64,000 nt of DNA from Eremomyces bilateralis CBS 781.70. Taxonomy: Eukaryota. Below, piece by piece: positions 21,579-42,045 of the stretch. The position numbers and the translations under genes are program-made. The stretch's first letter is position 1; every line of letters begins with the position of its first letter. The notes beneath the pieces are model-generated. The model was not told the origin of the DNA. It did not search any database and was given only the letters and a program-made list of their open reading frames with translations. The stretch is from the NCBI GenBank assembly GCA_010015585.1, contig ML975159.1; one strand, written 5' to 3'.

Positions 21579-24500
21579 TCAACGTTGGTCTGGAAACCCC
21601 TGGTAACCGTGCAGAATGCCTGTTCCAGAGCCCATTGACCACTCCGGTTCCTGAACCCCCAACTGGCCCGGGTGTTGACCGTTGGTGTGATTAACCTCTT
21701 CATTGTCGTTCTCGTCCTCATCCGCCTGGTAATCGTCCTCCATACTAAGCACTCCCATCGCGTAATGAATCCGAGCAGTCGGGTTGGAGAGAGCGGATTT
21801 TCTATCCAACTTGAGTTTCTCCAATGGATCAATCTCATCTTCTAGAGGCTGCGTTGGATTGCTGGGGGCGTTTGGAGCGCCCGATTGCGAGCCCATTGGG
21901 ATCTCGTTTCCAATAGCGCGTCCGAAATGCGGTATGTGGCTTTGTCCTCCCGCTGAAGATGAACTCTGCTGAGGCGCCTCCCTGCTCTTCTTGTGAGGAA
22001 CAAGCGAAGCCCGAGGCACAACATTGAATCCGCGAGTATCCCGCCGTGTGTAAGGAGGACCACCTCTGAGCGCTGCATTTTCCCACGCACTCTCGCATCC
22101 CATCGCAATGGCTCCCGCACTTTGAAATCCCGTTCGCCTGTGGATCATGAGAACCCGGTCGACGAGCCATTCACGTTGACTGGGATCCATGAATTGGATG
22201 CCAGCGAAGAACAGTGGCACCGTGATCTCATAAATGGCAGCTCCAAGGGACGGGTTGAGCGGTGCGTGGGGGGCGCCGGACAAGTTCGTACTGCCCATTC
22301 CTCCAGCGCTGTCAATAATCCCTGCTGCAACGCGACCGATTTCTTGCGCACGTTGGGCAGTTTGGTGCCCTGAAACTGCGGCAGCCATCATCGCCGCTGG
22401 TGGCATGGTAGGGTGTGATCTTTGGAGGATGAGATGGCACATGTGATAAAGGCCCCATACCACGGCCCTATCAAAGGAGCGGTATTGCATTGCAGGACCG
22501 AAAGGGGTGTGGACTGTAGGGGCGAATTCCGGGGAGAGTGGCTGGAAATTCGGACCCAGCTCCATCTCAAAAACCGTTAGCGCTTTCAGAATGCTGTTCC
22601 ATTCCTCCAGGGCAGCCGCAGTCGCGGCGGGAAGGTCGGCAATATCTCTGGCCTTTTTGGAGCTTGTAGAAGAGCTGTGTGAGGCGTCGGAGCGTGATGA
22701 GGGTGATGAAGGTCCGGCACGGGGAGGACGTGGAATGAACCGAGCTTGTTTGCGGGCATCGTTGTTCTTGTATGCGGAAGGCATATGTCCTCGTGTCACT
22801 GGCGCCATGCCGAAAAATGGAGGAGGCGCCATGCCAGGAGGAGGCCCATTTGGTGGTCCACCCAATCCAGGAGGCCTCGCGCCTGGAGGAGGCCCATTTG
22901 GTGCCCCACCCAATCCAAGGGGCCCTGTGCCTGGAGGCGGCCCGCCCGGTTGACCTTGCGGATGTCTGGTGAAGTTAGGGGACGCGTGAGGGTTCGAAGG
23001 GAGCGGCGGGCCCGTTGGCTGGGTTCTTGGAACTCCACCACGGTCCGGTTGCGACACCTGTGGCCCTGCTCCCGCACCCAGAGAGGCATCACGTCCTGCT
23101 GGGAAAGCATTGGGGTCCACACTTGGTTGATTCTGGCCAGGCCTGCCAGCCATGCCGCTCGGAGGCCCTCCTCGGCCCATCCCAGGGGGCGGGCCGGGAG
23201 TTTTCCATTGGGGTCCGAACGCTTGCAGTTGGCGAGTCTTCCTTGGTCGATCTCGCGCCGCGAAGTCGGAGATGCGCCCAAGGAGCAGGATCAAATGATC
23301 ATGGGTCCCGTATACAGCAGCCTTGCCCAACTTGGCTCGTGGCGGACAGTCCGTCCACTTGTCGTACGACATGAGTAGCGGTTCTCCGCTGATAATGCTT
23401 TGATAAGCATCCTGTCGGCAGTACCACCAAAAGAGGTCTTGGTAGATATCGTAATGATCCAGGTGAAAGCCTTTCTTTGGGTTGGTTCGGCCCTGAGATG
23501 AAGATCCTTCCGGCTCCACCTGCCCAAAATCATCAAAACGGACCTCCCTTCCAACTAAAGTGCTGAGCACGCCTTCGTCAACCTCATTCGGGGCATCTTT
23601 TCTAGGCTGACTATGGAAACTGCTATTGGCCATTAAGTCCGGCATTAGCTGGGTAGACATAGACAACTGTGCGTCGTGGCTCAAGGAAATATGCCAGTCG
23701 GACATTCCCTTGTGGTTCTGTTTCTGGGAAGCCTCTGCTTCACGAGATTTTCTGAGCTGCTTCGTCATGCCCACATAGTCGATCTCTACAATCAGCTTCT
23801 GTGCGCCCTGAATATGCGTGCTCCATCTCATATGTTCTCCCGCCATGACCTCATAGAACCCAAGAAGCAGACTCGCAGCCAGAGTTGTTGCTTGATGCCG
23901 CTTGCTCTCGTCAGATAAACGCTTGTTGATCCGCTTTATGGCGTAGCCATAATGCTTCAGACTTGGCATTTCGCTAGCGCCCTGCAACTTTGCGATATGC
24001 AAGCTACCAAGCGCAAGCATGACTTGAAGCAGCGCCTGGTCATTAATAGCAAGGACCGGTAATGTATACGTCCACAGGTTCTGCTGGCTTCGGGGTATGT
24101 GGACTTCTGAAAACAGGCCACTTGCATTTCCAGGGTTTCGTTCATAAATGCTCAGACTGGGGCCGGTCGCGTGTATGAAATGGGCAAAGATGCGACGAGT
24201 CGCTTCATTCTTGAGCGGATTCGCAGCATACTCCGGATGATAGATGTCGAGGAGATCCGGCGTGAGGAATGCATCGTATCCCCGCGTCGAGAAATCGGAT
24301 ATGCTTTGCTTGTGCAGCGCTATAAGCGAGTTAAAGTCGTGGTTTTGGTTGGACGCAAGTTCCAGGGCAAACGCTTGGTCGTCCTCTGGCTCGACATCGA
24401 AGAAGTCATCGTCGTGAGATTCGACGGCCCCGGCTTCAAGGATGTCCTGAGCGGTAGTTCTCGGGAACCATACAGCTGAGGCCGGATGAACGTCTGTGGC

Positions 24501-25700
24501 GCCGGAAGAGAATGGTATGTTGTAGGATTTCTGGCTTTCCGAGGTCATGGGGGTTGTAGCGGACGTCTGAATGGATCCGTCAACACTGGGCCCGGAATCT
24601 CCGGTAGTTTGCGGCGCCGGCGGGAGATTCTGGAAGGAGCCATCATTAATAGGAGGAGAGATATCGTCGGAATGAGAAGGGGGGATGAGCCTTGTTTGTT
24701 GGCTTGACTGCCAAGCATGGATCGCGTTGAAGGAGTCATGTTCGAGCCCGTGGCCGGATGCGGTTGGCAACGATGGCTGCGCAGAGGATTGAGGATGAGT
24801 GGATGGGTATGATGAAGTCTGGTCTCGGACTTGAGATGGTTGGGATGCCGTGAACGATGGTTGGCTGAGGTAAGGCGGGTTAGGCGCAGACGCAAACTCA
24901 GGTTTTATATCCACAGTAGTTGATGGCCCTGGATGGGAGTCCTGCGGCTGGATAACAAATTGATTTTGATACCCTTGGATACCATCCATCCCAGGGGTCT
25001 GTGGAGGTGCCGTCCAAGACGATGAGAGTTGGGGCGGGGTGAAGTTATTGTTCTGACCGAATTTCGCCACATGCTGCTGATCGCTGGATTGGGTACTCGG
25101 AGGTGCTTGATATTGAGCAGGGAAAGGAAATACGGTGGTTAGACCTGAGGGAGGTGGACCTGGTGCATTTATGAAGATGCCATGAAACGGCTGCTGATGT
25201 GACGAGGAAACAGGCGCGAAACTCGCAGAGAAGGGTTGTACGGTAGGCGGCGCGGGGTTTGACTGGGCATGATTCATAGAGAGGTCTTGAGTGAATCCGT
25301 AACCCCCATAACCGGCTGGGGCGCTTTGCAGAGGGGTCGCTATGGGGGACTGTTGCGAATGTCCCTGGACCTGCGAAGGTTCCGGTCTATACTCGCGCAG
25401 AGCACTTCCTGGCATGCCACCGGTGTGGTATTGAAGCGTATGGATTCCAGTATTACTAGGCCAGTTGTCTATCGGAGGCTTGAATATCACTCGCTGGTTG
25501 TAGCCTTCGCAATGCCGTTTCGACTTGATGCAGTTTCCGCACACCGGCTTCTCTTCGCCGCATTTGATTCGACGTTTCCGACATGTCAGGCAACCTGTCT
25601 TCGTCCGCTTTCTTAACCGGGGATTTGGTGCGTTGGGTCTCGAGGACATGGGCTCGAAGCCCTCCATCTGCGAAGGGACATGCGCCTGGACTTCGGCCAT
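21579..25700 (-). CDS. Large Zn(II)2Cys6 transcription factor with a Fungal_trans_2-type domain (Moc3-like); single exon, about 1373 aa
   Basis: Cluster RKRTKTGCLTCRKRRIKCGEEKPVCGNCIKSKRHCEGYNQRVIFK. Middle blocks FAHFIHATGPSLSIYER, ALGSLHIAKLQ, LLLGFYEV and LFWWYCRQDAYQSIISG. First ATG is at 25700. Confidence 0.9.
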   Translation of the reverse strand: MAEVQAHVPSQMEGFEPMSSRPNAPNPRLRKRTKTGCLTCRKRRIKCGEEKPVCGNCIKSKRHCEGYNQRVIFKPPIDNWPSNTGIHTLQYHTGGMPGSALREYRPEPSQVQGHSQQSPIATPLQSAPAGYGGYGFTQDLSMNHAQSNPAPPTVQPFSASFAPVSSSHQQPFHGIFINAPGPPPSGLTTVFPFPAQYQAPPSTQSSDQQHVAKFGQNNNFTPPQLSSSWTAPPQTPGMDGIQGYQNQFVIQPQDSHPGPSTTVDIKPEFASAPNPPYLSQPSFTASQPSQVRDQTSSYPSTHPQSSAQPSLPTASGHGLEHDSFNAIHAWQSSQQTRLIPPSHSDDISPPINDGSFQNLPPAPQTTGDSGPSVDGSIQTSATTPMTSESQKSYNIPFSSGATDVHPASAVWFPRTTAQDILEAGAVESHDDDFFDVEPEDDQAFALELASNQNHDFNSLIALHKQSISDFSTRGYDAFLTPDLLDIYHPEYAANPLKNEATRRIFAHFIHATGPSLSIYERNPGNASGLFSEVHIPRSQQNLWTYTLPVLAINDQALLQVMLALGSLHIAKLQGASEMPSLKHYGYAIKRINKRLSDESKRHQATTLAASLLLGFYEVMAGEHMRWSTHIQGAQKLIVEIDYVGMTKQLRKSREAEASQKQNHKGMSDWHISLSHDAQLSMSTQLMPDLMANSSFHSQPRKDAPNEVDEGVLSTLVGREVRFDDFGQVEPEGSSSQGRTNPKKGFHLDHYDIYQDLFWWYCRQDAYQSIISGEPLLMSYDKWTDCPPRAKLGKAAVYGTHDHLILLLGRISDFAARDRPRKTRQLQAFGPQWKTPGPPPGMGRGGPPSGMAGRPGQNQPSVDPNAFPAGRDASLGAGAGPQVSQPDRGGVPRTQPTGPPLPSNPHASPNFTRHPQGQPGGPPPGTGPLGLGGAPNGPPPGARPPGLGGPPNGPPPGMAPPPFFGMAPVTRGHMPSAYKNNDARKQARFIPRPPRAGPSSPSSRSDASHSSSTSSKKARDIADLPAATAAALEEWNSILKALTVFEMELGPNFQPLSPEFAPTVHTPFGPAMQYRSFDRAVVWGLYHMCHLILQRSHPTMPPAAMMAAAVSGHQTAQRAQEIGRVAAGIIDSAGGMGSTNLSGAPHAPLNPSLGAAIYEITVPLFFAGIQFMDPSQREWLVDRVLMIHRRTGFQSAGAIAMGCESAWENAALRGGPPYTRRDTRGFNVVPRASLVPHKKSREAPQQSSSSAGGQSHIPHFGRAIGNEIPMGSQSGAPNAPSNPTQPLEDEIDPLEKLKLDRKSALSNPTARIHYAMGVLSMEDDYQADEDENDNEEVNHTNGQHPGQLGVQEPEWSMGSGTGILHGYQGFPDQR
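22834..22943. repeat. 48-bp coding tandem duplication in the Gly/Pro-rich insert of the C6 factor
   Basis: Units start at 22834, 22882 and 22930 (ccWggaggaggcccatttggtg...) and encode GG(A/P)PNGPPPG repeats. Confidence 0.7.
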
Positions 25701-26252
25701 ACTCGTGGGTATGCGATCGCGAGTTCGAGTCCGTTCGTGGAGGGTGAATGCACGGAAGGGATGAGATATCCTGGATTCCTGTCCTTCCACGAGAGGAACG
25801 ATAGCGTCTGATATATTCTCTCAAAGGGCCGTAGGTGTATTAACCTGTCGAATCACTTCATGAGTGTCTGGATGTGCAAGATCATCCAGGCGAGGCAATT
25901 CCTAACGCGACATGGTCGTTGGTGTGGCCAGAACAGCCATTGAAGCTGGTAAGTCCAGGGTTCCTGGAAGACAAAGAAACCACGTCAGTCGCCCTTGAAT
26001 GAACAATGGCGAAGGTAAGTGCAAAAGAAGACAGAGTTATTCGAGCAGGACTTGAGCAAAGAAAATGAGAAAATGAAAGCCATTCAAAGGGGCAATTGTT
26101 GCGAACTGTGAAGGAGACAAGGTTAGGTTAAACCGGGCCGTTCTGCGGGGGGGCAGTCGATACAGATCCGGGTATCGACTCCTGGGTTGCGCTAAGTATT
26201 GTGAGTCAACTGCGCGGGCCTACGGGTGACCAGTGCTGCATATCGGGATACC

Positions 26253-28368: not shown

Positions 28369-30860
28369 CTACCATTCTAACGGCTCCTTCTTCACTTCCC
28401 CCCGGTTTGTCTTGGGCACTGGCAGTGCCTCGATCATGGTCGCGCCTCCGATTCCCTTCCTCTTCAAGTACCCCCGTCCATCCAACCACGGATAGTCCCG
28501 AGTTCTCCGCCCCTCGAATCGTTTGATCTGATCCTCCACCTGCATCGTCAATCCGATGTCGTCCAGCCCGTTCACCAAGCAGTGTTTCCGGAAGCTCTCC
28601 ACCTCGAACTGCGCGAGCGCGTTGCCATCCGCGTCCTTGATGACTTGGTTGGGCAGATCGACCTCGATCTCCTTGCCGGCGGACGCCTCCGCAGCGATGC
28701 GAGCGAGGACGACGGCGTCGGGTATCCGGATCGGCAGCATGCCGTTCTTGAAGCAGTTGTTGTAGAAGATGTCGCCGTAGCTCGGGGCGATGACGCATTT
28801 GATGCCGAAGTCGAGGAGAGCCCAAGGCGCGTGTTCTCGACTGCTTCCGCAGCCGAAATTGTCGCCCGTGCACACCAAGATCTTCGAGTTTCGGTACGGC
28901 TCCTTATTGAGGATAAAGTTTGGATTTTCTGCGCCAGTTTTCGGATCATACCGCCAGGCATGGAAGAGAGCGACTGCGAGGCCGGAGCGTTTGATGGTTT
29001 TGAGGAATTGCTTGGGGATGATGGCATCGGTGTCGATATTCGAGATCTCCATTGGGGCGACGATGCCTTTGTGCTGAAGGAACTTAGGCATCCCAGCGGA
29101 CGAGCGCGGTGCGGCGGTTTTGTCCTCCTCGGGGGTCTGGGGGTCGTCGATGATTCGGTCTAGATCACCGTCCGACTCGATGTCCGCCATGTGTGCCGGC
29201 TCGTCCACCTCGACCGTGGCCTTGATCGGAGCAGCCTTAGCGTCGAACCCGGCGATGCTCCGTACATCTGTCAGCTTCCCCGTGAGAGCTGCTGCTGCTG
29301 CCATTGCTGGAGACATCAAATGAGTCCTTCCGCCTGCACCTTGGCGGCCCTCGAAATTTCGGTTTGAGGTGCTCGCACAGCGCTCACCGGGGGAGAGGAT
29401 GTCGGGATTCATGCCCAAGCACATGGAGCATCCTGCCTCCCTCCAGTCGAAGCCAGCGTCGGTGAAGATCTGGTCCAGGCCTTCACCTTCCGCTTGCCGC
29501 TTCACGAGACCCGAGCCGGGAACGATCATGGCGAGCTTCAAATTTGAGGCGATCTTTTTGCCTTTAACGATGGCGGCGGCGGCACGGAGATCTTCAATCC
29601 GAGCATTTGTGCAGGAACCAATGAAGATCTTGTCGAGCGTGATATCCTGTATCGGTGTTCCGGCTGTGAGACCCATGTACTCCAAAGAGCGAATGCACGC
29701 ATTTTTCCGAGACTGATCTTCGAAATCGTCAGGACCTGGCACCACTCCCGTGATGGGCACAACGTCTTGCGGCGAAGTTCCCCATGAGACTGTTGGGATG
29801 ATGTCCGTTGCCTTGATGAAAAGGTCAATATCGTATTTCGCGTCCGGATCCGACTTGAGACTCGTCCAGTACGCAACCGCCTTATTCCATTCGGCACTAT
29901 CCGGCTTCGGAGCCAACGGACGATTTCGGAGGTAGTCAAACGTCGTCTCGTCCGGTGCCACCATCCCCGCGCGAGCACCGCCCTCGATGGACATATTACA
30001 CAAGGACATACGGGCTTCCATACTCAATCCACGTATCGCCGAGCCGCAGAATTCCACTACGCAACCGGTACCACCAGCTGTCCCGATAACTCCGATAACG
30101 TAGAGAATGATGTCCTTGCTCGTCACGCCCGGAGTGAGCTCCCCGTCCACCTGGATTCGCATGTTCTTGCTCCGTCGTGTGATGAGCGTCTGCGTAGCGA
30201 GAACATGCTCGACCTCGCTGGTTCCGATCCCGAAAGCAAGCGAACCGAATGCTCCGTGGGTGGAGGTATGGCTGTCACCGCAGACGACCGTCGTGCCCGG
30301 AAGAGTAAATCCTTGCTCCGGCCCGATGATGTGCACGATCCCTTGCCGCTTGTCTCCGAGACCGAAATAGGTGAGCTCGAAGTCTTTGACATTTTGCTCC
30401 AGGGTGACGGATTGTATTCTCGAGTCGGGCTCGCGGATGAACTCAGCGACGGTCTTGAAGTTTTTTCGGGATGAGGTGGGGACGTTCTGGAAGTTACTGT
30501 TAGCTGCGACCTCGCATCTCGGAGCAATTCACCACGAACATGATCGACTGTCGCCAACGTGCAGTCAGGTCTTCGGACTTTTCTTCCCGCATTTTTTAAG
30601 CCCTCGAATGCTTGCTGTTACTTCGGTTAGCATGCGAGTGTGTGGATTCAGAGACTCGAGCGGCAACGCACGGGAGATGTGACTTCGTGGACCAGATGTC
30701 GGTCTACAGCGCAATTAGCTTGATGGTCGAAATCTAGCGACTGGCGAGGAGAGGACTCACCGATGTAAAGGAGAATTGTGCCATCGTCTTTCTCATTAAC
30801 GATGTGTGCCTCGAACACTTTGTCGTACAGCGTTTGCGGGGGTTTCACAGCGGACGGCAT
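28369..30860 (-). CDS. LEU1: 3-isopropylmalate dehydratase (fungal fused LeuC+LeuD type); exons 30860-30761, 30703-30672, 30614-30540, 30486-28369
   Basis: Spliced TLYDKV...[21 protein letters not shown]...[41 protein letters not shown] and [12 protein letters not shown]; small-subunit motifs [13 protein letters not shown] and [15 protein letters not shown]. Confidence 0.97.
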
Positions 30861-31733: not shown

Positions 31734-34333
31734 TCACGGATTGACCAACCGCTCGATGCCCACTCTCTTTCTCCTTTCTTCGTTACGACTCATGCCTCCA
31801 TGTGATCGTCGTGCGTTTAAGGCGCTGGTATCACCCATCTCCCCCTCCTTGGCTCTTTGGGGATGTCTATCATCCCCTAGGGCCGGCGAGATGTCTCCGG
31901 GTGACAGTATCAGAGGTGGGATGTCTATATTGGGTACGCGGGACCATGAAACCAGAATCGCCTCTGCGGAAGCGGAGTCAAGATGAACGGATGGAGGCCC
32001 AAGGCCCAGCCATCCACTTGTGTCCAGACATGTGTCGACTGTCAAAGCTGCAGACGACATGGCGGATGCCGATCGGCGGCGCGATTTAAATGCAGAACTC
32101 GTGTTATATATCCCCCCTGGCGCCGAAAGCGGCGGAGCAGTGGGAGGTACACCTGAAGGACCTGGGAGGCCTGATTCCTCTGCTGCTCTTCGGATCAATT
32201 CAGCGAGCGACTCGGCCATCTGATGGGTTGATGACATTTCATGCAGCATAGATGTTGCGAATGAGATTATCTCGTCTCTCTCTTCTGAATGGCGTTGAAA
32301 TGGTAAATCATGCGACTGATGGGAGTTGGCCCAGTCGGACGCCTGGTATTCGAATGCTGCGAATGCACCCTCTGTGAGTATGCAGCACCAGTACGCTAGA
32401 ATGACATGCATATGTCTGCTGCTGTAGAGATTCTGGAACAATTCCAGTGTTCGTCGACCATCCCGTGTCATAGATTTGATTTGGGCTACTATAGACCCGG
32501 ATGTATCACGTCGGTGGAGGCCCTCGGAGTGTGAGAGGAGGGGTCTCAGGAGTAGTACGACCGACCCAACGTAAGAGACTCTGAACGCGAGCAGCTCGGG
32601 TAGCTGTTCCTGTGCCGCCAGCTGGGGTCGAGGAGCAGAATAAAGCTGCTCGATGTTCCCACGGGACTGGTCAAGCTTCTCTGCCAGGCGCATGAATTGG
32701 CGGGCTCGGGCTTCTGCACCAAGATTATGTTCGCAGGGAGCATACCAGTATTCCGAGATGGACCCTGAAGTTTCCTGGAGTTTTTGTAGCATCGACGTAT
32801 CTTTCCCCAAGGCAGTTCGACCAATCCTGGCAGTATTGGAGTCGTAAGGAAAACGATAAGGCCACCAATAGTCAGGTTCATTCTCGATCCACCGCAGATC
32901 TTCCATTTCTGCAGTTGAATAACCAGAAGTCCAAGTGAACAGTGGCGGGGAATATGTAACGGCACCGAGCATCCTGGTCGTTGCGCCTATGCGAGAAGCT
33001 ACGGCCCTCTGTTGTCTATCAAGGCGACTTGGACCGGCTGAAGAAGAGGTGCCGACGCGCAATTTTGCGACAAGCTCCATAGCACACTGAAGGAAGCTCT
33101 TTCCCCTCCGAAGGCTTGCATTGCTCTTTTCGTACAATGCAAGCAACACGTATGCCGTAGAGTGGGACAGCATAAGGGCAGCGCAGGCCTCGAAAGGTGC
33201 ATCGAGTTCACGCAACGCATGCTCGGCGAAGTAGATGCCCACTCCGGCGAACTCGGCTGAGTCGGTGGCACTGCCTCTAGGTCTGGACCGGCTTCTTGCA
33301 CCGCCTCGCACGTCTCTCTGGGGATCACTGAGCATAAGGCTGCCCAGTGCACAAGCTGCGGAAGTTAGTGCGGTCGAGCTGAACCTTTTGCCGTCGGGAT
33401 GGCCCATCGAGTTCTTGTTTGATATTGGAAATGCCGAGTTAGGTACAATAGGACTGATGGGACCCCACCAGGTGCAATACAGCGAGAGTAAGTGGTCTAT
33501 TAGTTCCACTGATGCTCCATTTCCACCTCTAGGCTGGTCGTCTATATTGAGGGTGAAGCTTGTGGTAGACGCCATACTCGGTAGTGACGGAACTGAGCGT
33601 TGCGATGCGAATGTTGGAAGGCTTGGCATGCCCGGAAAACTTAGAGTCGAAGAAGGCAACAAGGTAGTGCCTGTGGAGTTTGGATACGGAGTATACACCT
33701 GCGTCGGGCCGAGGTCAAGCATCTGAACAGACGAGGAGCGTTGCTGAGTACTATTCTGGGGTGGCAAAGTCGGTATAGGGGGGCTCGAAAAGGTTGGCCT
33801 GGTATCCTCTACGGAATCACTCTGATCCCTAGGTTCTGTAGGCGCCAGACCGAGGATCTGCTCCGTGCGGTGCACACAGTTAATCAGACTTGTCTGCGGT
33901 TGTCGATTCGAGGGCGCCTCTGCGGTTGCAAGTGAAGATGTACCTTGGTCTTTTGATCCTAGCTCATTTAAACGTGCCATGAGGTCTTGATTTTGAGCCT
34001 CCAACTGTCTGATCTTTCGAACCATTTCTTCTTTGACAGTTTTGACGTGGACTTCGTAATGGCAGGATATCTCAATTCTTCTCGAAGCGCACCGAGTGCA
34101 AGGATTTGGGTCATTTCCATCACACTTTTAGGGTGGTCAGCGAACTCCACACAAAGTGCCTGAAAAGGGCGGCAGGCGTTAAGAGAGCAAAAGTTGCAGG
34201 GAAATAAATGTAAGGGCCTCGAAAGGTCGCGTACCTTTGCTCTCGCTTTCTTGCAGTTTGTACAGGCGTTAGGGGAAACATGGGCTGGAGTCTTCCTCTT
34301 TCGGGACTTGCTCTCTGATCCGTCAGAGGCCAT
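31734..34333 (-). CDS. Zn(II)2Cys6 transcription factor (NirA-like architecture); exons 34333-34235 and 34124-31734
   Basis: Spliced cluster NACTNCKKARAK|CDGNDPNPCTRCASRRIEISCHYEVHVKTVKEEMVRKIRQLE, followed by a coiled coil. Middle homology-like region LIDHLLSLYCTW...FSSTALTSAACALGS. Intron GTACGC..AAG. Confidence 0.88.
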
Positions 34334-37300
34334 GATGCCGACCTTCCTGTTCACAGAGTTGACATATAGTGCAAGTTGATATGCGCTGAAATCAGCGGCG
34401 CCACACATTCCTTCTTTTATCTGTTGAGGAAGGCAAGAATCGATATTAGCTCTTTTGGAAAATAGCAAAGCGGGAAGAGACTTGTGGGATTAGATATTTG
34501 AATATGAAATCTGCTAAGTGTCATGCTCGATGTGAAAAGCATGGCAAACGATAAGCAAGGGGTATAGTTTCTTCGCAAAGGAGATTCGAGTCGATTTTGA
34601 GGTTTTAGCTGTTGAACAGAATATCTGTCTCGTGTGCCGGTATAAAGAGTATGTGTTGTGATCGCCAGTACACTACTTCGGGCCCTTTACATCATCAGCT
34701 GTTAAGACTAGAAAAGATAGAGTAGAACAAGGGAATAAAAATGTATTGTTCAAGGAAGGGTTTACTGTACGTTGGGCAAATGCTCCAAGTTCTCGACAGA
34801 ACAATAGCAACCACTCGCCAAAGCTTAACGACAATGCTACTTACCGCGTCAGCGAGAAAGACGACCCACAGCTTCCCAGTAAGGATTGATCTTCCGCAAG
34901 ACTCCCATCAGAATAGCTTTGGGTCACGTCCGATTTTCTATACTCCCCGGCAGGACAATGGATACTCATGCAACAGTGCATAGTACATGGGCAACTTAGG
35001 ACAATGCCAGAGACAATGGGAAACGCTAAACAAAAATAAGCTTCTGTATCCGATTCATCGATCGCACGAGCGGAGAATACCCTTACCGTGTTAGCTTTCT
35101 GATCCATATTGATGTCGGTGAAGTCGTGATACGATGTCAACAAAGCGTTCGCATATGTTGGGAAGCTAAGATGGAAAGCTAGGGAAGGCAAAAAAGGCCG
35201 CGGTCTTGACGTAATTTGGATCCTCGGGACTTAAGGGAGTAGTAGGTTTTGGAGTCCTAATTGGAGGAAGATAGCCAAACAACGATGCATCTAGATCGGC
35301 GTGACCGGAGGCATGAGCGGTCAACACTCAATCAGGGAGTTCTTTGTCAGTTGCCAACAACCACGCGGAAGAGGGTTTCGTCTGGATCGGTGCTCGCTAC
35401 GGCAAAGTCTTAGATGTTTAAGCGAACCACATACGACGTTGGAGATGATTGCCACGCCATTTTCCATAACAGAAACGCCTTGGACAGCAATTGGGGGTAG
35501 GCATAGTGCTCAGTGCCCAACTCGAGCCTAGACTCCAATTTCAAGGTCTGGAATGATAATCCCGAAGGCCCGAACAAATCATACAGCCCCTTTCCCATCG
35601 GCAGCCTGCTCATACAGGACGGCGGACATAAAGATCCAGGGCTTTCGATCAAACTTGCCATCGCGGCATGCGTCATTGTGGAGGGTGGACGATGCAGATC
35701 ATGAACAGGGTGGAGGCGGGACAGGATGTGTCGTCCTGGGTAACTGGGTTCCTGGTGAAGCAGCAGCAGGTCCTTTGTCAAAATCGCATGTATCAGGAAA
35801 CCGTGTACCTCGTCGGGCAAGGAAAATTCATGTCGTTCTCATGTGAATTTACTCTCCTTGGGACACGGTATATCGTGCAGTCGCTTCTTAAACGGCCATT
35901 GTGGTTGTTCTGTAGAGGAAAAAAGGTTCCACGACACATGAATTTGTCAATTTGAAGTTGGACTTTCCCAGTTGTCAGCAAGGATGCTCGGCCCCCGGGC
36001 TAACGATGAAAGGATAAGCATGCACGACGCGACGCGACTCCTGGCTGGTACCATTGACTGGCCTGCAGATCAACGGAAGTCTCTCCTATTCTATGCCGAC
36101 CAATTATCAGCAGTGGAATTCACCAACCTAATGCCCCGATGCGAACGATAGGACAACCATTGTTGTTAATGTTATAGAGTAAAACCGCCCAAATGGTAGT
36201 TTCGAATACATCAGTCCTAGAAGATCCTATCCTTGTGGCGCCGAATGCGTCATGGTGGTATTATGGCTCCGCTACCTTGTCGGATTTGATAGAGAGGCAT
36301 CAGGAAGAACTCGAAAATAAGAGGTGACTGGACACTTGGGCCCAGGACTTTAATCGCGATTATTGACGTATCATAATGAAATACTAATACCTGTAAAGAG
36401 CCTACCGGTAGGAATCTCCGGAGGCTGGTCCAACCTTTCCAGTTTCGACTATTAATTAATTAAGACCAGGGACAACAAAGGATGATCTCTAAAGTCTAGC
36501 CTGGTCCTTCAAGCTGACCGACCAGATCCTTGAGATAGGGCTGACGCCTCCGATCCGATCCAAAATGAAACAAAGCACTCATTATTATGTAGGTAAGTAG
36601 GCTAACTCACCAGCTCTTGATTCCTCGCTCCCAACTCAAAGTACTCACACCTCGAGCAACCTCCATCGGCAAGCGTACAGCATGCATGCATATGCATCCT
36701 GCACCGCTTCAAGGAAGCCAAACCGCTAGAGCTCAGCGGCACTGTGACTGGAACCGAGAAAGGCCATACGATGCGACGAATGTGCTCTGAGTTTTAAGTG
36801 GTAAGGTATCCATGCTTTTCACGAGCGGGAAGCCCTATATCCTCGGGGTGTCGTGCATCTTGCATACATTGAAGCCACCTTCTCCTATGCCGGAGGAACT
36901 TCCATGGGGTCCTACTCGCGGACTGCATGCGAGTTCATGATCACTACACCGGCAACGTGCAATAATGCAGCCCATCGGGGGCCTTGACATTGGACAAAGT
37001 CATTTTGCGGTCATTGTATGAAATATGGTATTACAAAGGTGTTGAGGAGTGTTTCACAGCAGTGGACTGATGCTGACGTGGTGTGCTAATAGTTGCATTG
37101 TTACTTCCGTACTCCATATGGAAATATTGGTTGAGCGGCGTATGACTTCGTTTGAATTCATAGATGGTTGCATTCTCGCTTCGGCGTGTGTCGCGCGTGT
37201 TGACGATTCTGAATGAATAAATGAACAGTATCGGGATATATAGTAAAGAGCTGGGTGTTTATGATTCCAAAATAGTCAAAAGAACTGTAGGTATCCGTGC

Positions 37301-37768
37301 TAAGGTACTTTACTTTACCTCACTGGAAACGACCGCCTGAGGAGAATGCGCCCTCTCCAGCTAGGACATCCAAGGTTTCTGCCTAGTACTAGTTAAGTTC
37401 ATCAACAAGATCTCTGACGGAGTCATCATTGTACACAGATCAATGATATTTGGCGTCGAGTATAGGAATTAATAGGGAACGCAATGGAAGAAGGATAATG
37501 AGGTCATCGTGCAGTATATGGCTAAACCCAAAACGGTTAGACTATGTCATTATAATTCAGGTACTCTCAATTCAGGTACATATTATTATCTCCTGTGTAC
37601 GTAGGCTGATAGCCAAAGCGACAAGTAATCATGGAGGAAATGGCTCCGAGACATATTCTTCGCTTCACCATGTCTTTTATACTTTCCCGGTACTTCCTCG
37701 CTCTCACGCACCGCTGATTCAATCGAAATGGTACATTGGTGACGAACATTGGTAACCTCCAAGCAGTC

Positions 37769-39683
37769 ATGGCACAACCGTACGTGAACAATTCACAGTG
37801 GCAAGAAAGTACCAGATATGGATCTTCATCTGACATGATTTCGCCCATTAGGGATATCAAAGGATCGTACCTACACTGGGACTCGATCAGTCCGGAGGCG
37901 GAACGCCTGCATCAAGAGAGCATCGACGTGAAGCGTAATACTCCCCACTGCTGTCATAATGGCTAATCGGTGTCACAGTACCTTATCAGAATATGGCCGT
38001 CTATCCGAGATCGGAAGGCAGACTCTCAGACTTGGGGTGATGAGGTAGGCTATACCCCGAACGCACCCATCAGCAATCTAACCACCAAGCCAGGTGGAGT
38101 CTCAGCTTGTGAAATTTGACGCCCCCGCTCGCGAAGTGCATCTGTCATTAAAACAAGATGAAGTGCTCGCGAAAGTCGGCAACAGAGATGATGTTGGGTT
38201 ATTCCAGCCCGAGTACGGGAGGTATATGGTTGAATCCACGCCAACGATACCCTATGGGAGCTCTCCTTCCGCACTCACTAAAGTGGAAAATAACCTCAGG
38301 ACCCGTCGCAAGACGATTCAGTCGTATTTGGGTGATGACGAAGCGCTGCTGACACTGTCATTATTCCCCTTGTTGCATCTGAAAGAGCTGAGGAAAGCGA
38401 TTCGGGCACCCCTGGATCGAAATGACAGTGAGGTTTACACTGAAGTCACTGCAAGTGGCAAATACGTTGCAGGACGCATAAATATCAAGGCCAGGCGCAA
38501 CAAACCGGTCGATATAGAAGTACCTGTTTTCCAAGACACGCACACATCGAAAAGCACCAAAATCTTGCTCGAAGATACCATCTTCGGTGCCGGAGGCTGC
38601 GGTCTGCAGGCGACCTTCCAAACGGAGACTCTCGAAGACGCTCAATTTCTACACGATCAACTTGCCGTAATCGGACCAATCATGTTAGCGTTGACTGCAT
38701 CGACGCCGATATACAAGGGAACTCTTGCCGACACGGACGCACGCTGGGATCAAGTCGCAGGAGCGGTCGACGACCGCCAGGTGCACGAAGCGTCAGGGCA
38801 TGGCTACCATAAACTCAAGAGCCGCTGGTCACTCTGTCCGATGTATCTCGGTCCCTTGGACCCTTTGGACGGAATCGACCACTATCTGGACCCGCATACG
38901 GAACAACAGAACCGTCAGATCCGGGATCTGCTGGTCTCTGAGGGGATGGATCCGGTCATGGCCAGTTACTTCGCCACCCTCCATGCTCGAGACCCGCTTT
39001 ATCTCCACAGTCAAGACCACACCGTCGACAGCGTCACGCCCGAGGACGTGCACCGCAGCATTTGCGCGAGCGTCTGGAGCCACGTGCGACTGAAGGTCCC
39101 AGAGCCGGAAGAAGAGCAAGGGTGGCGGGTCGAATTCCGCCCCATGGAAGTGCAACCATGTGATTTTGAGAATGCGGCCATGTTGGTCTTCTTGAGCTTG
39201 CTGAAGCAGGCCTTGGGGTGGGATCGCAGCAGCAGTTCGCGTCAGACGGCGCGGCAGTGGTACATCCCGCTGACCGCCGTGGAAGAAAACATGTCGCGAG
39301 CGCACTCGAACAACGCGGTCCTCACGGAGAAGTTCTGGTGGCCGACGAGAGGACCGAGTCCGGGGAAAATAGAGCTGACAGTGGACGAGATCATCAACGG
39401 GACGAGCGAGGGAAGCGATGGTCTGATCCCCCTTGTAGAATCCTACCTGAACCACGTTCGTCTGGATGATAGCATTCCCGAGGCGGACTCCAAGTCGCAC
39501 ATGGAGCAGGTTCAGAAGTACATCGACTTTGTACGACGGCGTGCCAGGGGCGAAGTGCCGACTCCGGCGCAGTGGATCCGGGGAATGGTGTCGAAGCACC
39601 GAGATTACAAGCAGGACTCGATGATTTCGCAAAGCGTGTGCTATGATCTTATGAGGGCATTCCAGGAGCGGGGGAGGGGGTAA
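37769..39683 (+). CDS. Divergent glutamate-cysteine ligase (GCS/Gsh1-family catalytic subunit)-like protein; exons 37769 (or 37835)-37927, 37979-38044, 38094-39683
   Basis: Spliced ...LHWDSI...YLIRIW...TWGDE|VE; FQPEYGRYMVESTP; LALTASTPIYKGTLADTDARW...AVDDR; RDPL; GWRVEFRPMEVQ..DFENAA; RRARGEVPTPAQWIR..V..H.DYKQDS. The first donor (GTGAAG) is weak. Confidence 0.88.
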
Positions 39684-39973
39684 CGACTGTTGAATAGATA
39701 TATATATCCTCGTACACATTCTTAATATTGGTATACACCGTTTCTTCCCTGGAGATAATTCAGTCTTGTAAGTCAAGGTTGGGCTCCCTCGTGAGCAGGA
39801 ACATGAGGATGCGATGGAAGGTCTCGCAAACGAGAACCAAATAGCAATCAGTTGAGGATCCACTCCAGTGTTTGAATGCATCCATAAATATCGTGTTGAG
39901 AATCGTAGCTATTTGGACACTGGTTCAGTGTCCCAGGGATTGCTGTTGGAGGACGCCAGTCCATGCCAAAACA

Positions 39974-41573
39974 TTAACGCCTCTTGTTATTGAGAATGGC
40001 GCGGATCTTCGGGAATTCCAGAGGAAGTTTGAGCCTCGCCATTCGATGCGTCGACGCGTCCGCTTTGCTTTTGATTCCCCATTTCTTGTACTCGTTTTCC
40101 GGCACGCTCTTGACCTTGCAACCGATTTCACGGAAGTATTGGGTCATGCTACGCGAAGCGTTAGTGATGAATCACGAGTTCCTGGAGCCGAACTTACTCT
40201 TGGTTCTCCAAATGCAGATCATTTCGAATATCAAATGTGTCCGTGTCGAATTCATCTATGATCAGAGTAAGGGCTGCTATATGGGTGATGAGCAGATCCA
40301 AGTGCCATCGAGAGACGTCCCTGCTGGAAAGTTAGCGTCTGTGAATGATGCAATTCCCACGGCAGACACGGGATAGGAACCCACCCTCGATCTTCGGAGA
40401 ATTTCCTCTTCGACTTTTCAATCAGGTCCTCGCTACCATCGGACAGACTCGAAAGAAGGTCTTCTTTCTTCGGCCACCGCTTCATTCTCTTCCCCTTCTC
40501 CTGAATTTTCTGATAGACTTCGACCAGGAAAAGCAGATATCGCAGGCACTTCAATCGCTTGATATCTCCACCATCAACCAACTCCTTGAGTCGACGGGCC
40601 ACGTATTGGCTGCCGAGCTGGACGTCGTTGCCCGCTTCGATTGCTTCGATCCACGGCTGCACAGTAACATAACTCATAAGCTCCTGGCCAATGACTGACT
40701 CAGGGGTGTAGACCATGTCGGCTGTTTCAGCGTTGAGATTGGCGTCAGGTCGTGGTTTGGCCGCATCAATTTCCAATTGCAATGTCTCTCGCGACGTTGC
40801 GGCGGCATCGGTTTTCGGCATGGCAGCGAGCATAGCCTTCACCAACGGATCGTCGCGATCGAGTTCGGCCTTCGGGCCACCGAGAACCGTGCCTTGCGCA
40901 AGCGCATTGGAGGCTTGCGCTTGAAGATGTTTCTTGGTTTTTACCGTTCCGAACTCCATTCCCAACTCTCGTCGCAACTCGAAAGCCTGGAAACCATTAA
41001 AAACAGGAAAAGGCCAGGGTCCAACGCGCCTCACCTTATGGAATGATTTCCCGTCAGCATTTTCTGACTCAGCTGGCGCCGGCTTTTCTCTCAAGGAGCC
41101 TCGCACAATGAGCTTCCGCGCCGGAACGATCTTCAAGGTGTTGTCGTTTGAATCATATACGCCGACGTAGTGGGTCAAATCTTTGCCTATGGTGTCGTCC
41201 ACATCTGCCGTTGCCGTGTAATCAATCCGCGGGTGCTGCGAAGATTGTAGGAGAAGGTCATGTCCTCGAGATTCAGCGGGCTGTCCTCTTCGTCGTGATC
41301 GTCGTTCGCGCTTGTATGGCTGGAACGCAAGCTTGGGATTCAAGGCGATTCCGGCGGATTCGGCTGGTAATATGTAAGTACGAGTCCGGCCATGGGCACC
41401 AAAGTATATATCTCCGTACCGATAACGGGGCAAACAATGTCTGCATCTTCGTATTGAACCTTCAACTTCCCGCTTTCGCGTTTGTCCTGGAGCGACACTC
41501 TTTTACTCGGATTGCTTCCTGTGTCACTCGTCCTTTTGCGCTTCTTGGCCGGGGCTTGTGAGGATGAATTCAT
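39974..41573 (-). CDS. RPA49: RNA polymerase I subunit A49 (RPA49/PAF53); exons 41573-41420, 41363-41035, 40986-40385, 40323-40198, 40148-39974
   Basis: LLLQSSQHPRIDYTA, HYVGVYD, LGMEFGTVKTKK, KPRPDANLNA...VY; spliced C-terminus WHLDLLITHIAALTLIIDEFDTDTFDIRNDL...QYFREIGCKV...ARLKLPLEFPK. Confidence 0.9.
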
Positions 41574-42045
41574 GATCAGTGTAAATACCAGCTTTCCCGC
41601 TCCAAGATATCTCAAATTGAGGTCTGCAGAATTCCGTGGCTCGCTGGATTCACGACTCTAAAGAGTTGTGCCAAATATTTTCAATTCGAGGAACGAAATC
41701 TTGGCGCTCAGGGTGCGGGAACGTGGCGGTGCATGTGGAATTGGATGTGAATTGTGGCGGTGCAATGACGTCGAACTAAGGAAGGCGCGACTGAACGTCT
41801 ACTGTGGTGATCAGATCCAGTGGAACAACTTAAACTTGGATATTTACCAAGATTTCTTCCCATTTGCAGGTTCATGTCTCTCGTTTCTCGTTGAAATTGA
41901 AGCGTTGGAGATGGTTCCTACCGAGTGCCTTGTCTAGAGTCCCTTCTTTTCCGTCTTGCACTACTGTGTACTACGTTCGATTGTACAATCTCTATCCTTC
42001 TGGTTCACCAGATATAATTCTACGCATTCAGTCAGTACCTGGACC

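Follow-up and report, generated by a model that had tools for sequence, protein, structure and literature searches.

A divergent second glutamate-cysteine ligase-like gene of Eremomyces bilateralis with kept catalytic residues and an altered acceptor-side motif

Glutamate-cysteine ligase (GCL) is usually regarded as a single-copy housekeeping enzyme of glutathione synthesis, and many fungal gamma-glutamyl compounds are currently ascribed to side reactions of the fungal enzyme, Gsh1, or to transpeptidases. Precedents for the fold being re-aimed at new amines are YbdK/GCS2, the glutamine-synthetase-like 1-naphthylamine gamma-glutamylase and the Pup ligase PafA. The closest described system for the gene considered here is Gsh1 of Saccharomyces cerevisiae, for which the structures 3ig5, 3ig8, 3lvv and 3lvw are available in the PDB. 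In this article we analyse a gene on the + strand of a 64,000-nucleotide stretch of DNA (hereafter the window) from contig ML975159.1 of Eremomyces bilateralis CBS 781.70 (assembly GCA_010015585.1). Its product, P0001, belongs to the same Pfam family as yeast Gsh1, adopts the same predicted fold and keeps the residues that contact Mg2+, ADP and the gamma-carboxylate of glutamate; unlike the yeast enzyme, it carries Trp in place of Tyr362, the neighbours of Trp445 are replaced and the HxRF motif is lost. It is not the glutathione enzyme of E. bilateralis, but a second copy.

The gene consists of four exons and three introns (72, 51 and 49 nucleotides, GT..AG in all three; Table 1). Scripted joining of the exons gave a product of 580 amino acids, identical to the deposited "GCS-domain-containing protein" of this strain, which was also found as a 100% match in a protein search with the large exon. 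A preliminary description, made from the letters of the DNA alone, had placed the gene between 37769 and 39683, and these limits coincide exactly with its start and stop codons. All the motifs quoted there are present in P0001 (WGDEVE at residue 48, spanning intron 3, PEYGRYMVE at 90, SGKY at 172, ILLEDTIFGAGGCGLQ at 208, DARW at 266, KSRW at 293, VHRSICASVWS at 370 and GWRVEFR at 394), and the canonical counterparts, given there without an alignment, were correct, since IYMDAMAFGMGSCCLQ, HVRF, KSRY, HFENLQSTNWQ and MGLL all occur in P0169, the canonical enzyme of the same species. The MGLL N-terminus is absent as described: P0001 starts with MAQPDIKGSYLHW where the canonical protein has MGLLALGTPLEW.

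P0001 matched the Pfam GCS profile (PF03074) with an E value of 4.3e-100 and 336 bits (cut-off 25) over profile positions 2-370 of 372, and yeast Gsh1 (3ig5) was the only solved relative found by sequence (E 7.7e-53). The AlphaFold2 model, built on a 54-sequence alignment, had a mean pLDDT of 92.4 and a pTM of 0.94. Its top Foldseek match was again 3ig5 (TMq 0.83, E 1.1e-37, 27% identity), followed by YbdK (TMq 0.47) and by plant and bacterial GCLs, all with TMq below 0.5. The bacterial carboxylate-amine ligases YbdK/GCS2 (1r8g), 8x6z and 4bjr have the same superfold as P0001 according to Foldseek, with lower scores, but they belong to different families with 6-13% identity to P0001 and are not useful relatives. 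As judged from the Pfam profile, the modelled Gsh1 fold and the retention of the Mg2+/ADP residues together with Arg472, the window gene encodes a carboxylate-amine ligase with an intact structure, dependent on ATP and Mg2+, which belongs to the eukaryotic GCS (PF03074) family.

A search with the canonical Rhizodiscina enzyme (P0075) identified P0169, a GCS-domain protein of E. bilateralis of 668 amino acids that is 79% identical to the query. It is encoded on a 1.59-Mb contig, different from the 0.74-Mb contig that carries the window gene. The window gene is thus not the sole GCL gene of the species, and the proposal that it is a second paralogue was borne out both by the presence of P0169 and by the position of P0001 outside the canonical clade in the tree described below. 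Both an extra and a canonical copy were found in at least eight named species, namely E. bilateralis, Rhizodiscina lignyota, Trichodelitschia bisporula, Patellaria atrata, Cladophialophora yegresii, Aspergillus luchuensis, A. costaricaensis and A. tubingensis; for other species no canonical copy was among the matches listed.

The residues were compared in an alignment of 13 core proteins (the clade of P0001), seven proteins of the wider family of extra copies, 76 canonical Pezizomycotina enzymes and 26 other eukaryotic representatives, with yeast numbering. P0001 keeps D49, E50, E52, E96, E103, Q268, the Arg of DxRW, W445, K451, E470 and R472, for which Table 3 and the text of PMC5613772 give roles in the binding of three Mg2+, of ADP, of glutamate and of the amine and carboxylate of the cysteinyl moiety. 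The Mg2+/ADP counterparts in P0001 are E51, E53, E91, E98, E398, K385 and R400, and they are conserved in the clade. Furthermore, the catalytic residues are invariant in the 13 core sequences despite a mean column identity of only 54%. Since all residues known to contact Mg2+, the ADP phosphates and the glutamate gamma-carboxylate are kept, P0001 should still be able to form an acyl phosphate, most likely gamma-glutamyl phosphate.

In other respects the protein is much changed, and its substrate site is rebuilt. As reference we used 158 columns that are at least 95% conserved in the 76 canonical Pezizomycotina enzymes and at least 80% conserved in the 26 other eukaryotic representatives. P0169 keeps 155 of these near-universal columns and has changed 3, whereas P0001 keeps 113 and has changed 45; the canonical enzymes of Puccinia, a chytrid, a spider and Cyanophora keep 154, 149, 151 and 155, respectively. 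For the core clade 153 of the columns could be evaluated: 98 are kept, 37 are variable and 18 are fixed to a different residue, and eight of these 18 fall within a stretch of 19 columns (H421-P439 in P0169 numbering) around W445. It is here that HFENLQSTNWQ has been replaced by the core-clade-specific block V-H-(R/K)-S-I-C-A-S-V-W-S, a version that the clade in turn conserves. In P0001 (VHRSICASVW) the Trp of the HFENxQSTNWQ motif is kept, and the preceding H, F, E, N, Q, S, T and N are all replaced. Also confined to the core clade are changes at both the His and the Arg of HxRF, Tyr for His and His for Phe in HFAHLF, and Gln for one Arg. Fixed or near-fixed changes that most of the wider family has as well are Tyr362 to Trp, Cys266 to Gly (CCLQ to CGLQ) and Tyr to His in (M/L)YDQL. 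Yeast Tyr362 forms a hydrogen bond with the glutamate alpha-carboxylate, according to PMC5613772; Tyr occupies this position in 100% of the 76 canonical Pezizomycotina enzymes and in 85% of the 26 other representatives, and Trp occupies it in 13 of 13 core proteins (Trp296 in P0001) and in 6 of the 7 aligned wider-family proteins. The Met equivalent to Leishmania Met322, which that source assigns to the glutamate pocket, is Ala or Pro. Additionally, P0001 is about 88 residues shorter than P0169, and position offsets in the alignment indicate the loss of three loop segments.

About a dozen proteins, nearly all of them metagenomic, and the Rhizodiscina lignyota protein P0006 share 44-48% identity with P0001. 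With the canonical Pezizomycotina Gsh1 proteins, which are 76-86% identical among themselves, it has only 32-36% identity. A profile of the core clade scored 14 clusters at 714-937 bits, Coniosporium apollinis P0013 at 525 and canonical enzymes at no more than 478; with Trichodelitschia bisporula P0197, a sequence of the query alignment that was not among the profile matches listed, the core amounts to 15 clusters, three of them from named genomes. In a search of 1.84 billion cluster representatives more divergent copies were found in Patellaria atrata, Cladophialophora yegresii, Aspergillus oleicola, A. ambiguus, Cyphellophora europaea and an Aspergillus section Nigri group that includes An08g01270.

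The tree (37 rows, 610 columns, IQ-TREE with LG+C20 PMSF, rooted on Cyanophora, Norrisiella and Endostelium, yeasts left out) placed P0001 in a core paralogue clade of nine rows (support 100/99), which is nested in an extra-copy family of 20 rows (99/98). This family and the canonical Pezizomycotina enzymes (nine rows, 100/99) are sister clades (100/98), to the exclusion of Puccinia, Tulasnella, the chytrid and two animals, and so the two have a common origin. P0001 lies outside the canonical Gsh1/GCLC clade and the orthologue of the species is P0169; the end branch of P0001 measures 1.08 and that of P0169 0.24. The tree is consistent with a single old duplication in Pezizomycotina and, after it, widespread loss and rapid evolution, and long-branch effects may bear on the deeper grouping, several of the paralogue rows being long. 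By this placement the window gene is a member of an apparently old, patchily retained and fast-evolving paralogue family of Pezizomycotina.

Other uncharacterised extra copies belong to the same 20-row family, including those of Coniosporium apollinis (P0013), Patellaria atrata (P0227), Cladophialophora yegresii (P0222), Coleophoma (P0104), Aspergillus oleicola (P0216) and the An08g01270 group of section Nigri (P0203). The Dothideomycete, Chaetothyriales and Leotiomycete extra copies have the Tyr to Trp change, CGLQ and LHDQ in common with the window protein. Unlike P0001, the other extra copies keep a more canonical acceptor motif (e.g. NHFDSFSSSVWP) and the Arg of HxRF, and the core clade of the window protein is set off from them by a further stem of 0.93 substitutions per site. 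A literature search, with most subscription journals outside its reach, returned no paper on extra fungal GCS copies, on An08g01270 or on the window gene.

Evidence at the RNA level came from one public run labelled 'RNA?', kept as contigs, which gives neither an expression level nor the share of transcripts with intron 3 spliced. The run contains 83% of the sampled words of 37400-39900. Over 36000-41800 its contigs carry five spliced joints, four in the RNA polymerase I A49 gene, which converges on the window gene from the - strand, and one that corresponds to intron 1 of the window gene (37779>37852, GT..AG, + strand, one contig, depth 32.4). These joints demonstrate that the run contains RNA and that the window gene is transcribed and spliced on the + strand. 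A contig of 3399 nucleotides extends from 37979, the start of exon 3, through all of exon 4 into the A49 gene, and it retains intron 3. The metagenomic relatives at loci L001 and L003 have no intron at this place. As to the intron itself, it is 49 nucleotides long with good GT..CTAAC..AG signals, and its removal is required for the conserved WGDEVE. One contig has adapter letters in front of position 37636, where it starts, and this hints that transcription may begin there.

The best reading of these data, to which we give about an even chance, is that P0001 is an active ligase that still forms the acyl phosphate and has a rebuilt acceptor site with a changed acceptor. The preliminary description had called the gene a neofunctionalised paralogue with a different acceptor; this part of its claim is plausible, given that the acceptor-side motif has been rebuilt and that the clade conserves the rebuilt version. 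The rebuilding of the motif around the Trp that binds the acceptor carboxylate in yeast Gsh1 suggests that the nucleophile accepted by P0001 would no longer be cysteine. Since the equivalent of Trp445 is kept, the acceptor is probably still a compound with a carboxylate, for instance another amino acid, and the product might be a gamma-glutamyl dipeptide or amide other than gamma-Glu-Cys. Canonical yeast Gsh1 can join glutamate to valine (PMC6508711), hence acceptor drift in the GCL family seems chemically easy.

Several observations weigh against this. The characterised Leishmania gamma-GCS has Asn and Ala at the positions of yeast Cys264 and Cys266 (PMC5613772), and the change of Cys266 is not diagnostic because of the Ala in that enzyme. 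Four Tulasnella proteins combine Trp at Tyr362 with Val at Asn444 while the rest of the motif is kept. These proteins may be the only GCLs of their fungus, and if they are, both substitutions are compatible with the making of gamma-Glu-Cys. The one listed RNA contig that crosses intron 3 retains the intron, which would stop the frame at 38117-38119 and truncate the protein to about 60 codons. Finally, no conserved neighbourhood pointing to a pathway was found when the window and two metagenome loci were compared.

It is an unlikely but serious alternative that P0001 has remained a gamma-glutamylcysteine ligase, as a second isozyme that is regulated differently, for instance one that escapes glutathione feedback or serves under specific stress, in which the altered pocket tunes inhibition. 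All catalytic residues and the acceptor-carboxylate Trp are kept and the fold is that of Gsh1, and some of the changes highlighted above occur in a real GCL (Leishmania) or in possibly sole ones (Tulasnella). Glutathione inhibits GCL by occupying the substrate sites (3LVW complex, cited in PMC5613772), so that changes in the pocket could act on feedback. However, the change of 45 of the 158 near-universal positions, compared with 3-9 in the canonical enzymes of a rust fungus, a chytrid, a spider and a glaucophyte, and the replacement of nearly the whole HFENLQSTNWQ motif argue against an isozyme of this kind. Moreover, the gene is absent from most relatives and decayed at two metagenome loci, which is unexpected for a useful glutathione isozyme, although it does not exclude one.

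Less probable still, and improbable in our judgement, is a change of the acyl donor and not of the acceptor alone, whereby P0001 would activate not free L-glutamate but some other carboxylate, for example an analogue of glutamate or glutamate bound in a peptide. The Tyr362 to Trp change throughout the core clade and in nearly all of the aligned wider-family proteins, together with the replacement of the Met322 equivalent by Ala or Pro, would suit this idea, as would the recurrence of the same Tyr to Trp change in extra GCLC-like copies of the mussel Mytilus and in one protein of the amoebozoan Endostelium. Nevertheless, the remaining glutamate contacts (E52, Q268, the Arg of DxRW and R472) are all kept, and Trp can still donate a hydrogen bond. 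Outside the paralogue family Trp is present independently at this position in divergent GCLC-like proteins of unrelated eukaryotes, namely P0213 and P0371 (Mytilus, in tandem on one contig), P0198, P0344, P0381 and P0402 (Tulasnella) and P0223 (Endostelium); from the alignments, the recurrent change could be a convergent signature or simply a tolerated one.

That the gene is a decaying or non-catalytic remnant, drifting since the duplication, is very improbable: the very long branch, the disrupted relatives at L003 and L002 and the intron 3 retained in the RNA contig would fit it, but the 580-codon spliced open reading frame is intact, the model of the fold is of high confidence, RNA shows intron 1 spliced out, the core sequences do not vary at the catalytic residues, and at 18 changed positions the whole clade has one and the same new residue. 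The first four of these points also support the earlier statement that the gene is not a pseudogene.

Table 1. Features of the window gene and neighbouring genes (positions in the window)
Feature	Position	Strand	Evidence
Probable 5' untranslated region	37636..37768	+	One RNA contig only, starting at 37636 behind adapter letters; weak hint
Exon 1 (MAQP...)	37769..37779	+	Spliced product identical to P0001; junction 37779>37852 in RNA contig
Intron 1, 72 nucleotides, GTACGT..TAG	37780..37851	+	RNA-contig joint skipping 72 nucleotides, one contig, depth 32.4
Exon 2 (DIKGSYLHW...ESID)	37852..37927	+	Scripted splicing
Intron 2, 51 nucleotides, GTGAAG..CAG	37928..37978	+	Scripted splicing; large RNA contig starts exactly at 37979
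Exon 3 (YLIRIW...TWGDE), with Asp50 and Glu51 (yeast Asp49, Glu50)	37979..38044	+	Splicing, alignment
Intron 3, 49 nucleotides, GTAGGC..CTAAC..CAG	38045..38093	+	Retained in the one listed RNA contig that crosses it
Exon 4, 529 codons and stop, contains Pfam GCS domain	38094..39683	+	Open reading frame, Pfam match, splicing
PEYGRYMVE: Glu91, Glu98 (yeast Glu96, Glu103; Mg2+ ligands, acceptor-amine contact)	38208..38234	+	Alignment; PMC5613772 Table 3
ILLEDTIFGAGGCGLQ: Gln223 kept; canonical Met (yeast 262) to Ala; canonical Cys (yeast 266) to Gly	38562..38609	+	Alignment
KSRW: Trp296 in place of yeast Tyr362	38817..38828	+	Alignment; PMC5613772
VHRSICASVWS, rebuilt HFENLQSTNWQ: Trp379 (yeast Trp445) kept, neighbours replaced	39048..39080	+	Alignment; PMC5613772
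RLKVPE: Lys385 (yeast Lys451, ADP phosphate contact) kept	39087..39104	+	Alignment; PMC5613772
GWRVEFR: Glu398, Arg400 (yeast Glu470, Arg472) kept	39120..39140	+	Alignment; PMC5613772
Zn2Cys6 transcription factor	21579-25820	-	Neighbour in window
LeuC/LeuD-type (Leu1-type) isopropylmalate dehydratase	28369-30528	-	Neighbour in window
RNA polymerase I subunit A49	from 40252	-	Neighbour in window

Besides the neighbours listed in Table 1, the window contains a promethin-like protein, a weak kinase match and unknown proteins. Upstream of the gene, on the - strand of 31734-35838, there are long open frames of 797, 173, 129 and 142 amino acids, none of which matches Pfam at E <= 0.001 and which probably form a single large gene of unknown kind. 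At 39683-40250 the window gene (+) and the A49 gene (-) meet tail to tail, so close together that a single RNA contig covers the two; two more short introns of A49 lie at 40149-40197 and 40320-40383. Relatives of the window gene were found at four metagenome loci: L001 is intact as far as its contig reaches, L002 has one in-frame stop, L003 (L003:10141-11750; 87% DNA identity to L001) is disrupted by two in-frame stops and a frameshift and reads WGNE instead of WGDE, and L004 is a weak 27% match. Repeat-induced point mutation was considered as the cause of the stops in L003 and rejected, as the 55 C>T and 43 G>A differences from L001 are without CpA bias. Upstream of the relatives at two metagenome loci lie genes for an Atf1-like bZIP protein and for SUR7, and there is no synteny between the window and these loci beyond the window gene itself. 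Membership in a secondary-metabolite cluster was rejected on this ground and because the neighbours in the window are not a biosynthetic cluster. An assignment of the neighbouring aconitase-family gene as homoaconitase, which would have given a link to alpha-aminoadipate, was likewise rejected, since the gene is of the LeuC/LeuD type. The window gene is accessory in character, being rare, missing from most relatives and degraded in some, and it lies outside any recognisable cluster.

Two features of the deposited canonical proteins were also recognized. Many canonical GCLs of lichen-forming and other fungi (e.g. P0015, P0019, P0028, P0034 and P0051) are named 'Zn finger-containing GTPase-Activating Protein for ARF'. 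In yeast Gcs1 is an ARF GAP, and the name apparently arose from a mix-up of Gcs1 with gcs1 (GCL) that was propagated by annotation pipelines. In several Pleosporales the canonical GCS protein is about 1130-1155 amino acids long and carries a GATA zinc finger (PF00320; P0125, P0126, P0135, P0161 and P0178), which reflects either a genuine fusion or the merging of two neighbouring genes into one model.

If the paralogue family ligates glutamate to another acceptor, it would be a dedicated enzymatic source for one of the many fungal gamma-glutamyl compounds, and it would also offer nature's own test of how the GCL fold sets acceptor specificity. More tentatively, P0001 could be regarded as a founding member of a Pezizomycotina-wide family of GCL-derived ligases that make an unassigned gamma-glutamyl metabolite, with the Tyr362 to Trp change as a convergent signature of the substrate switch. 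P0001 is a good test case for these ideas, since it is short, is predicted with high confidence, keeps the catalytic residues and has in P0169 a control from the same genome.

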